Source: Desulfobacteraceae bacterium | Lineage (GTDB): Bacteria > Desulfobacterota > DSM-4660 > Desulfatiglandales > Desulfatiglandaceae | Reading direction: 5' to 3' | DNA length: 24,000 bases | Assembly: GCA_016844935.1 (NCBI GenBank) | Contig: JAERTK010000101.1 | Location: forward strand, 1-24,000 | In this document: positions 12,473 through 13,890 of the stretch, one piece after another | Position numbering within the stretch: position 1 is the stretch's first letter | How the letters are laid out: the number at the start of each line of letters is the position of its first letter | The notes under the pieces: model-generated | Database searches by the model: none | What the model was told of the DNA's origin: nothing | The model's input: the letters and a program-made list of their open reading frames with translations, nothing else | Program-made: the position numbers and the translations under genes

Positions 12473-12498
12473 GGTGGAAAGGCTCAGTTGAGCCCGCC
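12473..12498 (+). promoter_or_regulatory. RNA hairpin covering the hgcA SD-like element and the TTG start
   Basis: GGUG (12473-76) pairs with CGCC (12495-98), allowing one G-U pair. A GAAA bulge follows (12477-80). GGCUC (12481-85) pairs with GAGCC (12490-94), with the loop AGUU at 12486-89. The TTG start (12488-90) and GGTGGA (12473-78) both lie inside the structure. Confidence 0.35.
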
Positions 12499-13549
12499 AA
12501 GTATGGAGCAACCGTTTGTTGAAGGATCTGTTGAAAGCAAGGTGGAGCGTGTCCCACGGGTTTCTTCCGCGTTAACGTGGGCCGATCGCTTCGGAACCTT
12601 TAAGGCCAGGTGGGGTGTTCGCCGTATGCAGTTCACCGTTGACCCCGGATTATATGCACTCGGAAACCCTGATGATAAAACCAGGGTGTTCGTGACCGCC
12701 AATTATAAAATGAGTTTTGATCGACTGCGTGAGGCGCTGATGGGTCGTGACGCATGGATCTTGGTGCTGGACACCAACGGTATTAATGTCTGGTGTGCTG
12801 CGGGAAAAAGAACGTTCGGTACGGAGGAACTGGTTCAGCGAATTGCGTCCAGTGACCTGGCAAAGATCGTGACCCACCGGGAATTGATTCTGCCGCAATT
12901 GTCCGGGCCCGGGATCGCGGCCCACCAGATAAAGAAGCTCTCCGGCTTTAAGGTCATTTACGGTCCCATCGAATCGCGGGACCTGCCGTCATTTCTGGAT
13001 GCAGGGTGCAAAGCGACTCGTGAAATGCGGAAGAAAACGTTTTCCACCCGGGAAAGGACGGTCCTTGTCCCGGTGGAATTGATGGGAGCCCTCAAATGGA
13101 CCCTTTTCATATTGCCGTGCCTGTTCTTCTTGGGCGGCCTTGGCGGTGAAGGAGGGTTCTGGGCCGGTGCCATGCGCTACGGCTTGTTTTCGGTGATCGC
13201 TTTTTTGAGCGCCGTCGCTTCAGGCGCTGTCCTGACACCCATTCTGTTGCCGTGGCTGCCGGGTAGGGCTTTTTCTTTTAAAGGGCTGGTTATGGGGATC
13301 ATAATGGCCATACTGGTTGCCTTTTTCTGGCCGGGTGATTTCAATGAATGGGCGGGACGGGCGGAAATTTTCGCATGGTTTTTTCTCATTCCGGCCATTT
13401 CGGCGTTTCTCGCCATGGATTTTACCGGTGCGTCTACCTACACCTCTCTTTCGGGGGTCAGAAAAGAGATGGGACTGGCGGTTCCTCTGGAAATTGTCGG
13501 TTGCGGCATCGGCCTGCTTTTATGGGTCCTTTCGCTCATTGCGGCATAA
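12488..13549 (+). CDS. hgcA: HgcA, the corrinoid protein of the mercury-methylation system (CFeSP-like corrinoid-binding domain plus C-terminal transmembrane domain)
   Basis: The diagnostic cap-helix motif GINVWCAAGKRTFGT is present (NVWCAAGK at nt 12785-12808, Cys codon at 12794-12796). It is preceded by VFVTANYKMSFD...DAWILVLDT and followed by HRELILPQLSGPGIAAH...FKVIYGP. The C-terminal ~160 aa form 4-5 hydrophobic helices (LFILPCLFFLGGLGG..., GLFSVIAFLSAVASGAVLTPILLPWL, LVMGIIMAILVAFFW, IFAWFFLIPAISAFLAM, VGCGIGLLLWVLSLIAA). The start is either TTG 12488 (GGTGGA 9 nt upstream) or ATG 12503 (no SD). Confidence 0.93.
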   Translation: MSPPSMEQPFVEGSVESKVERVPRVSSALTWADRFGTFKARWGVRRMQFTVDPGLYALGNPDDKTRVFVTANYKMSFDRLREALMGRDAWILVLDTNGINVWCAAGKRTFGTEELVQRIASSDLAKIVTHRELILPQLSGPGIAAHQIKKLSGFKVIYGPIESRDLPSFLDAGCKATREMRKKTFSTRERTVLVPVELMGALKWTLFILPCLFFLGGLGGEGGFWAGAMRYGLFSVIAFLSAVASGAVLTPILLPWLPGRAFSFKGLVMGIIMAILVAFFWPGDFNEWAGRAEIFAWFFLIPAISAFLAMDFTGASTYTSLSGVRKEMGLAVPLEIVGCGIGLLLWVLSLIAA

Positions 13550-13560
13550 GGAGTTTGAAA

Positions 13561-13890
13561 ATGGAAAATTTCGTATATCTCAAAGATGTGGTGACGCTGG
13601 CGCTGGACCAGGATAAATGCGTCGGTTGCGGCATGTGTCTGATGGTCTGTCCCCAGGCTGTTCTCGGCATGGATAACGGGCATGCCCACATTGAAAACCG
13701 GGACCAGTGCATGGAGTGCGGGGCCTGTTCCCAGAACTGTCCAACCAAAGCCGTGACCGTCCAGGCGGGTGTTGGGTGTGCCGCAGCGGTTATTAATTCG
13801 GCCTTGGGCCGTGACGAATCATCTTGCTGCTGTGTCATTGAAACCCATGAGGATGCGGGGAGCGAGAATGGGAGTTCGGGGTGCTGTTAA
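13561..13890 (+). CDS. hgcB: HgcB, the 2x[4Fe-4S] ferredoxin partner of HgcA
   Basis: 109 aa. There are two CxxCxxCxxxCP motifs (CVGCGMCLMVCP, CMECGACSQNCP), the conserved Cys73 (VGCAAA, nt 13777-13779) and a C-terminal Cys-Cys (nt 13882-13887). AAGGAG (13548-13553) overlaps the hgcA stop and lies 7 nt before ATG 13561. The longer ORF-track frame from 13348 overlaps hgcA and is not needed. Confidence 0.9.
   Translation: MENFVYLKDVVTLALDQDKCVGCGMCLMVCPQAVLGMDNGHAHIENRDQCMECGACSQNCPTKAVTVQAGVGCAAAVINSALGRDESSCCCVIETHEDAGSENGSSGCC

Follow-up and report, generated by a model that had tools for sequence, protein, structure and literature searches.

An hgcAB mercury-methylation gene pair from an uncultured Desulfobacterota bacterium and a corrected hgcA gene model with a probable selenocysteine codon

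The gene pair hgcA-hgcB is the only known genetic marker for the microbial production of methylmercury, which is neurotoxic, and it is present in a stretch of 24,000 nucleotides (nt) from a Desulfobacteraceae bacterium (assembly GCA_016844935.1, contig JAERTK010000101.1, positions 1-24,000 of the forward strand), hereafter called the window, to which all coordinates refer. The question raised by this locus is where hgcA starts and how a UGA codon lying in its frame is read. The original prediction had taken as HgcA an open reading frame (ORF) of 353 amino acids (aa) that opens with a TTG codon (12488-13549, +). This ORF is indeed present; what did not hold is its left boundary, since the N-terminus is truncated and the most likely start is the ATG at 12386, 102 bases upstream. 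The short call arises because the ORF list breaks at an in-frame TGA at 12464-12466. As analysed here, the locus is very probably the two-gene hgcAB operon of an uncultured Desulfobacterota bacterium in which HgcA is a selenoprotein of 387 aa, the UGA at 12464-12466 being translated as selenocysteine (Sec).

The identification of the two genes is confirmed, and the system to which they belong is already known. HgcA scored 464 bits against the NCBIfam equivalog hidden Markov model (HMM) NF040863, 'mercury methylation corrinoid protein HgcA' (cut-off 275, model positions 1-323 of 325), and HgcB 120.4 bits against NF040864, 'mercury methylation ferredoxin HgcB' (cut-off 99, model positions 2-93 of 93). 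Since both proteins lie above curated equivalog cut-offs, their identity is far beyond chance, and the pair is, as had been claimed for it, established rather than new biology. The practical outcome of the work is the corrected gene model, in which hgcA most likely extends from 12386 to 13549 (+), with Sec at 12464-12466, and comprises 387 codons followed by TAA; the predicted product begins with an N-terminal extension (MNQDKDGFAMLKTIDSKPLQAPSTSC-U-PKGGKAQ...) and continues with a corrinoid-binding domain and five transmembrane helices.

The in-frame UGA and the start of hgcA

Related loci were collected with a one-genome-per-species scan, which gave 80 loci with 59-79% identity over the best aligned segment, nearly all of them from metagenome-assembled genomes (MAGs) of Desulfobacterota. 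Among the closest are MAGs of the Desulfatiglandales type, 'Candidatus Desulfacyla' and NaphS2, a cultured strain on whose selenoproteins a literature search found nothing relevant. The hgcA of NaphS2 (locus L014) shares the C-UGA-P and the hairpin described below, the residues around its UGA being KAC-U-PSGK. The UGA site was compared in a set of 81 sequences, and in 64 of them an in-frame UGA is present, preceded by Cys in 57 cases, by Ser in three, by Gly in two, and by Arg and Gln in one each. The sequences whose site holds another codon have Cys-Cys (nine), Cys-Ser (one, with TCA, in locus L003) or Cys-Arg (one), while a few others have no motif or could not be scored. In L003 the TCA codon gives one continuous ORF. 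Moreover, the public homologues P0024, P0040, P0056, P0074 and P0099 run to 384-396 aa with no interruption; they share the same N-terminus (MDQEKD...LFKTI...) and carry SCCP or TCCS at the site; that of P0024 reads MDQEKD...SCCPGGGKVQLS. This replacement of Sec by Cys among homologues is the classical signature of a selenoprotein family.

The arrangement in the window agrees with that of its relatives. From the ATG at 12386, which stands 9 nt after a Shine-Dalgarno sequence AAGGAG (12371-12376, +), the frame reads MNQDKDGFAMLKTIDSKPLQAPSTSC, TGA (12464-12466) and PKGGKAQ before reaching the former TTG 'start', so that Cys26-Sec27 (TGC TGA, 12461-12466, +) would form the Cys-Sec (CU) motif. 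An ATG exactly 26 codons before the UGA occurs in nine sequences including the window, most of them with a GGAG-like run at Shine-Dalgarno distance, and in 59 of the 64 UGA loci there is some upstream in-frame ATG. In every related UGA locus an upstream ORF lies in the hgcA frame, and after the TGA comes GGCTCAGTTGAGCC, which hardly varies. Where the stretch from the UGA to the conserved core differs in length, as it does in 5 of the 64 loci, the gaps are of whole codons (3 nt) only.

Downstream of the UGA, a hairpin resembling a selenocysteine insertion sequence (SECIS) is found at 12473-12498 (+), its core (12481-12494) starting 14 nt after the UGA. The upper stem pairs GGCUC (12481-12485) with GAGCC (12490-12494) around the loop AGUU (12486-12489), and in the window a lower stem, GGUG (12473-12476) with CGCC (12495-12498), is reached through a 5' bulge. 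The fold has a free energy of -12.2 kcal/mol (z = -2.3), with 4 of 200 shuffled sequences being equally stable. The lower stem was dropped as a general feature, since just 54% of its cells are paired when all loci are considered.

When the 64 UGA loci are aligned, 99.7% of cells keep the pairing of the 5-bp core, and three of its five pairs show compensatory double changes (G-C to A-U, U-A to C-G and G-C to A-U). The loop is an A-G-U/G-U tetraloop with an invariant G at position 2, and in 56 of the loci 19 nt separate it from the UGA. In some of the compensatory changes a synonymous substitution at a third position goes together with a non-synonymous one on the opposite arm, as in Ala GCU to GCC together with Ser AGC to Gly GGC, which points to selection on the RNA and not on the peptide alone. 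Since about 33% of random 48-nt stretches inside hgcA hold some hairpin with a 5-bp stem and a 4-nt loop, only a position-specific test is informative. At the homologous position the hairpin was present in 63 of the 64 UGA loci and in 1 of the 13 non-UGA loci (Fisher p = 4.5e-12), this single exception being L003, whose codon is one base away from UGA. In its spacing from the UGA and in the G-U of its apical loop, the hairpin is similar to the minimal SECIS of E. coli fdhF. From sequence, then, the UGA is most likely recoded to Sec by the hairpin that starts 14 nt downstream, for which the role of a SECIS element is predicted.

The concept of HgcA as a selenoprotein is not new, since it was published in 2022. 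According to the relevant passages of Haft and Gwadz (bioRxiv 10.1101/2022.07.06.499078), the majority of HgcA proteins are selenoproteins that carry a CU motif near the N-terminus, including those of ND132 and Geobacter, both of which share the sequence PCUGP with 18 other homologues; for HgcB, Sec at residue 73 is given there for 6.4% of cases, and in the passages on HgcA no SECIS element is described for it. A 2026 review in Applied and Environmental Microbiology (PMC13188914) likewise includes HgcA (NF040863, CU) and HgcB (GVGU) among the prokaryotic selenoproteins. The gene of the window resembles the selenoprotein HgcA of Haft and Gwadz in that its frame extends upstream of the old start through one UGA, with Cys-Sec at the site and Cys-Cys in the non-selenoprotein homologues. 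Nevertheless, it differs in the context of the motif, which is S-C-U-P-K instead of PCUGP, and a few loci of the present set have SU, GU, RU or QU in place of CU. In contrast with the Sec form of HgcB, residue 73 is Cys in the HgcB of the window. The covarying hairpin thus adds detail to the published concept, which itself is unchanged.

The encoded HgcA and HgcB proteins

The cap-helix motif N-V-W-C-A-A-G-K, which the original prediction had singled out as diagnostic, is encoded at 12785-12808 (+) and corresponds to residues 100-107 of the short ORF. Its Cys (codon 12794-12796) is residue 103 of the short and 137 of the full-length protein, and in an alignment of 24 sequences the N, V, W, C and K of the motif are invariant. 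The sole Pfam match of HgcA is to CdhD (residues 49-168), and its only relatives in the PDB are the B12 domains of the large subunits of corrinoid iron-sulfur proteins (CFeSP), with residues 49-170 aligning to 318-439 of 2h9a (E = 1.4e-12); the same search found no HgcA structure. From these matches a corrinoid-binding domain is predicted. The membrane domain that follows (13058-13546, +) is predicted to hold five transmembrane helices, given that hydrophobic segments on the Kyte-Doolittle scale cover residues 191-219, 231-257, 259-286, 292-313 and 327-353 of the short ORF. A membrane region had been expected at about residues 195-353, and the five segments span about 191-353; the proposed fusion of a CFeSP-like corrinoid domain to a membrane domain is thus borne out by the CdhD match, the 2h9a alignment and the predicted helices. 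An AlphaFold model of P0024, a homologue with 73% identity, also has five long helices in its C-terminal third, with a predicted local distance difference test (pLDDT) score of 72-89 for that block. Only the transmembrane helices of this model were used, since its mean pLDDT, with the 24-sequence alignment as input, was 55 and its soluble domain scored below 50. The N-terminal extension with Cys26-Sec27 is probably flexible.

The second gene, hgcB (13561-13890, +), starts with the ATG at 13561 and encodes a ferredoxin of 109 aa, predicted to bind two [4Fe-4S] clusters and also recognized by Fer4 families of Pfam. It is separated from hgcA by 11 nt, and its Shine-Dalgarno sequence AAGGAG (13548-13553, +) overlaps the hgcA stop codon TAA (13547-13549), so that the spacing, the ribosome-binding site and the size of the ferredoxin are all as first described. 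The same holds for the cysteine signature. The two CX2CX2CX3CP motifs are CVGCGMCLMVCP (residues 20-31, nt 13618-13653) and CMECGACSQNCP (residues 50-61, nt 13708-13743), with the cluster cysteines at 20, 23, 26, 30, 50, 53, 56 and 60, and they are followed by Cys73 (TGT, 13777-13779), by Cys89-91 (13825-13833) and by the terminal Cys108-Cys109 (13882-13887). Both motifs, Cys73 (within GVGC) and the C-terminal CC are kept in all complete HgcB proteins of the related loci, and residue 73 is Cys, not Sec, in the window and in all of these loci. The gene follows hgcA directly in 78 of the 80 related loci, the remaining two stopping at a contig edge. Nearly all related HgcB proteins also have an extra triple Cys between Cys73 and the terminal CC, as SSCCCVIE or a Cys-rich variant, and the length of the tail between this triple Cys and the terminal CC varies among loci.

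The reference systems are those of Pseudodesulfovibrio mercurii ND132 (DND132_1056/1057) and Geobacter sulfurreducens (GSU1440/1441), established by Parks et al. (2013). The pair described here resembles them as a two-gene unit with a corrinoid domain, an N(V/I)WCA(A/G)GK cap helix and five transmembrane helices, as well as in the two CX2CX2CX3CP motifs, Cys73 and C-terminal CC of HgcB. The HgcB of the window, with 109 aa, is longer than the 93-position HgcB model and has the extra SSCCCVIE triple Cys, which is common to its clade. With the large subunit of CFeSP (AcsC/CdhE; 2h9a, 4c1n, 4djd) HgcA shares a homologous B12-binding Rossmann-type domain. However, CFeSP carries a [4Fe-4S] domain at its N-terminus as well as a TIM barrel, and lacks the membrane domain, whereas HgcA is devoid of these N-terminal parts, since only residues 318-439 of 2h9a align with it. 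The cap helix of CFeSP has no Cys either, the aligned 2h9a sequence being Thr-Ala-Trp-Ala, and the methyl donor also differs, HgcAB using S-adenosylmethionine (SAM) and not methyl-tetrahydrofolate (methyl-THF).

The way in which these genes are usually recorded gives the corrected model its relevance. Close public homologues carry names such as 'acetyl-CoA synthase subunit gamma' or 'CO dehydrogenase/acetyl-CoA synthase delta subunit', which agrees with the frequent mis-annotation that the original prediction had pointed out and which arises because Pfam shows only CdhD and Fer4 domains. Furthermore, the public hgcA calls of the clade (P0001-P0120) are almost all truncated at the N-terminus, with 353, 348 or 343 aa, and the call deposited for the identical sequence (P0003) has 307 aa, with Met47 of the short ORF taken as its start, a position that falls within the part matched by the HgcA HMM. 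Such calls drop a Cys-Sec motif that may bind Hg(II), and the surveys, HMM libraries, expression constructs and structural models derived from them omit a possibly functional part of the protein. Since hgcAB is the sole known genetic marker of methylmercury production, identifying it correctly makes this uncultured Desulfobacterota lineage a putative methylator, Hg(II) methylation being the predicted activity of the encoded pair.

Competing readings and proposed mechanism

A different reading of the same region is that the UGA at 12464 ends an independent leader of 26 aa, an ordinary HgcA being initiated at the TTG at 12488 (or the ATG at 12503) and the hairpin being a translational-coupling or regulatory structure. 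Several observations speak for such a leader or weigh against selenocysteine insertion. Most UGA loci, the window included, have a TTG or GTG codon at the position of the hairpin, seven codons past the UGA or, where one codon is absent, six; in the window, the TTG (12488-12490) straddles the junction of loop and stem, and an AGGTGG purine run 9-14 nt upstream makes initiation there possible. Gene callers pick the TTG start almost everywhere, which gives the 353-aa calls. Ahead of the UGA the extension shows little conservation, with 314, 195 and 325 substitutions by codon position, and the ND132 HgcA produced from the original gene model, which has no extension, is catalytically competent in E. 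coli (PMC11588087). The hairpin, moreover, is short (5-7 bp), and neither an Rfam scan of the whole window at gathering threshold nor one of 12100-12620 at E <= 1 gave a match to it, a cobalamin riboswitch or a catalogued SECIS family. In the 24-kb window selA, selB, selC and selD were not seen, a tRNA scan detected no tRNA gene at all and hence no tRNA-Sec, and a six-frame scan for other UGA-split ORFs with Cys/Sec-type contexts found none with substantial coding potential on both sides. Nevertheless, an independent leader would have no need to lie always in the hgcA frame with a spacer that changes by whole codons only, nor to end always in UGA and never in UAA or UAG, and the Cys-Cys, Cys-Ser and Cys-Arg variants are continuous ORFs with the same N-terminus. 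Three UGA loci have no ATG, GTG or TTG between the UGA and the conserved core, and eight have no NTG at the hairpin position. The hairpin disappears where a sense codon replaces the UGA, which fits a SECIS element and not a start-site structure, and the analysis of Haft and Gwadz, in the passages cited above, also arrives at a selenoprotein. The leader is therefore regarded as unlikely.

Two further explanations were weighed. HgcA could be a non-methylating paralogue, of the CFeSP/CdhD type or of the HgcAB-like fusion type, with a motif that only looks like the cap helix, as might be thought from CdhD being its sole Pfam domain and from its solved relatives being CFeSP large subunits only. However, against its 464 bits for the HgcA model (cut-off 275), the match to the CFeSP gamma/large subunit (NF003195) reached 66.3 bits with a cut-off of 306 and covered only the C-terminal 124 model positions. 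The HgcAB-like fusion (NF043039), which likewise combines a corrinoid domain with a ferredoxin module, gave 195.8 and 54.6 bits with a cut-off of 285, the modules lying here in two separate genes; both candidates were rejected. In addition, the five-helix membrane domain is specific to HgcA and a separate HgcB is adjacent, and a paralogue is thus extremely improbable. Hardly more credible is that the pair is an inactive relic of intact appearance, in a host that does not decode Sec or does not express hgcAB. The sel genes and tRNA-Sec not seen in the window would agree with it, as would the very low expression of hgcAB even in model strains (PMC11588087); but sel genes are not to be expected within 24 kb, the UGA, the hairpin, both ORFs and the catalytic motifs are intact, and the sequence is 75-88% identical to many relatives, with no frameshifts. 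The selenoprotein HgcA of a functional hgcAB operon therefore remains the preferred reading.

The mechanism that can be proposed for this enzyme follows by analogy that of ND132 (Zheng et al. 2024, PMC11588087). There, the clusters of HgcB reduce the corrinoid of HgcA to Co(I), which receives its methyl group from SAM and not from methyl-THF; in the resulting CH3-Co(III) the cap-helix Cys is the lower axial ligand, and the methyl group then goes to a Hg(II)-thiolate to give methylmercury. In the bacterium studied here, HgcB would accordingly deliver low-potential electrons to bring the HgcA corrinoid to Co(I), SAM would methylate it with the cap-helix Cys as lower axial ligand, and the methyl group would pass to a Hg(II)-thiolate, yielding methylmercury. 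The Cys-Sec pair of HgcA and the Cys-Cys pairs of HgcB may serve as soft-metal ligands which catch Hg(II) and pass it to the active site. As the extension-less ND132 HgcA is active, the CU motif is probably accessory, contributing to affinity, delivery or protection rather than to catalysis.

The TTG or GTG in the hairpin loop could also be a back-up start. Under selenium-replete conditions the full-length Cys-Sec HgcA would be formed, while under selenium-poor conditions ribosomes would leave the message at the UGA and start again within the opened hairpin, giving a shorter HgcA devoid of the metal-binding pair but still catalytic. We consider this possibility unlikely. If it were true, the selenium supply would alter the form of the methylating enzyme and perhaps the acquisition of Hg(II), and this would provide a molecular link to the antagonism between selenium and mercury observed in the field.

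Genomic surroundings of the pair

Since the gene upstream is divergent and the gene downstream convergent, hgcAB is a stand-alone pair. A candidate promoter-like site, TTGACA-18 nt-TACCAT (12282-12311, +), lies 75 nt upstream of the ATG at 12386 and matches the consensus at 10 of 12 positions, as a pattern only. The divergent gene (11624-12127, -) encodes a stand-alone receiver-domain protein of 167 aa, 258 nt from the corrected start of hgcA; it is kept in the same position in loci L003 and L005 of the related set, with 84-86% identity, and might possibly regulate hgcAB. Other relatives have different genes upstream of hgcA, as in L060, whose in-frame translation looks by eye like a winged-helix regulator of the MarR or ArsR type, and in L047, which has an ORF resembling a Cys-rich protein; neither has a counterpart in the window. 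At the other end, the stop codon of hgcB (13888-13890, +) overlaps that of the convergent gene for an SNF2-family helicase of 993 aa (13887-13889, -), and no terminator-like hairpin was found after hgcB.

Annotation with Pfam and NCBIfam of the window ORFs of at least about 140 aa also gave a nitrilase, MoeA, a tandem CobA/CobO adenosyltransferase, an aldo-keto reductase-like protein, a class-III aminotransferase, a radical SAM protein, a flavoprotein of the fumarate reductase type, a 5'-nucleotidase, a PPDK_N-domain protein, BrnT and a TLC-type transporter, in addition to the divergent receiver-domain protein and the convergent helicase. Among these annotated ORFs there are no mer genes (MerR, MerT, MerP, MerA, MerB) or other mercury-related families, in keeping with the original prediction that none accompany hgcAB, although small MerP, MerT or MerR proteins could escape at this length.

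Upstream of hgcAB, the genes for nitrilase (1325-2095), MoeA (2134-3348) and a tandem-domain ATP:corrinoid adenosyltransferase (CobA/CobO; 3364-4395, +; TIGR00708, 209 bits with a cut-off of 167.75) follow one another in this order. The same three-gene block is found upstream of hgcAB in L002, L003, L005 and L014, NaphS2 included, which are the four closest genomes with enough flanking sequence, and it could reflect shared ancestry or a link to the handling of the corrinoid for HgcA. Compared with L003 and L005, the window holds about 5.5 kb of extra sequence (4361-9845) between CobO and the flavoprotein gene, in which there are an aldo-keto-reductase-like protein with Cys-rich motifs (4361-6001), a class-III aminotransferase with an N-terminal extension of 180 aa (6034-7773) and a radical SAM protein of 683 aa (7794-9845, -). 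Towards the far end of the window, a 1016-aa protein (18652-21702) combines a hydrophobic, signal-like N-terminus with an ATP-binding domain of the PEP-synthase/PPDK type, and it is followed by a BrnT toxin (21839-22135) and a membrane protein resembling TLC/NTP-NDP exchangers (22433-23728).

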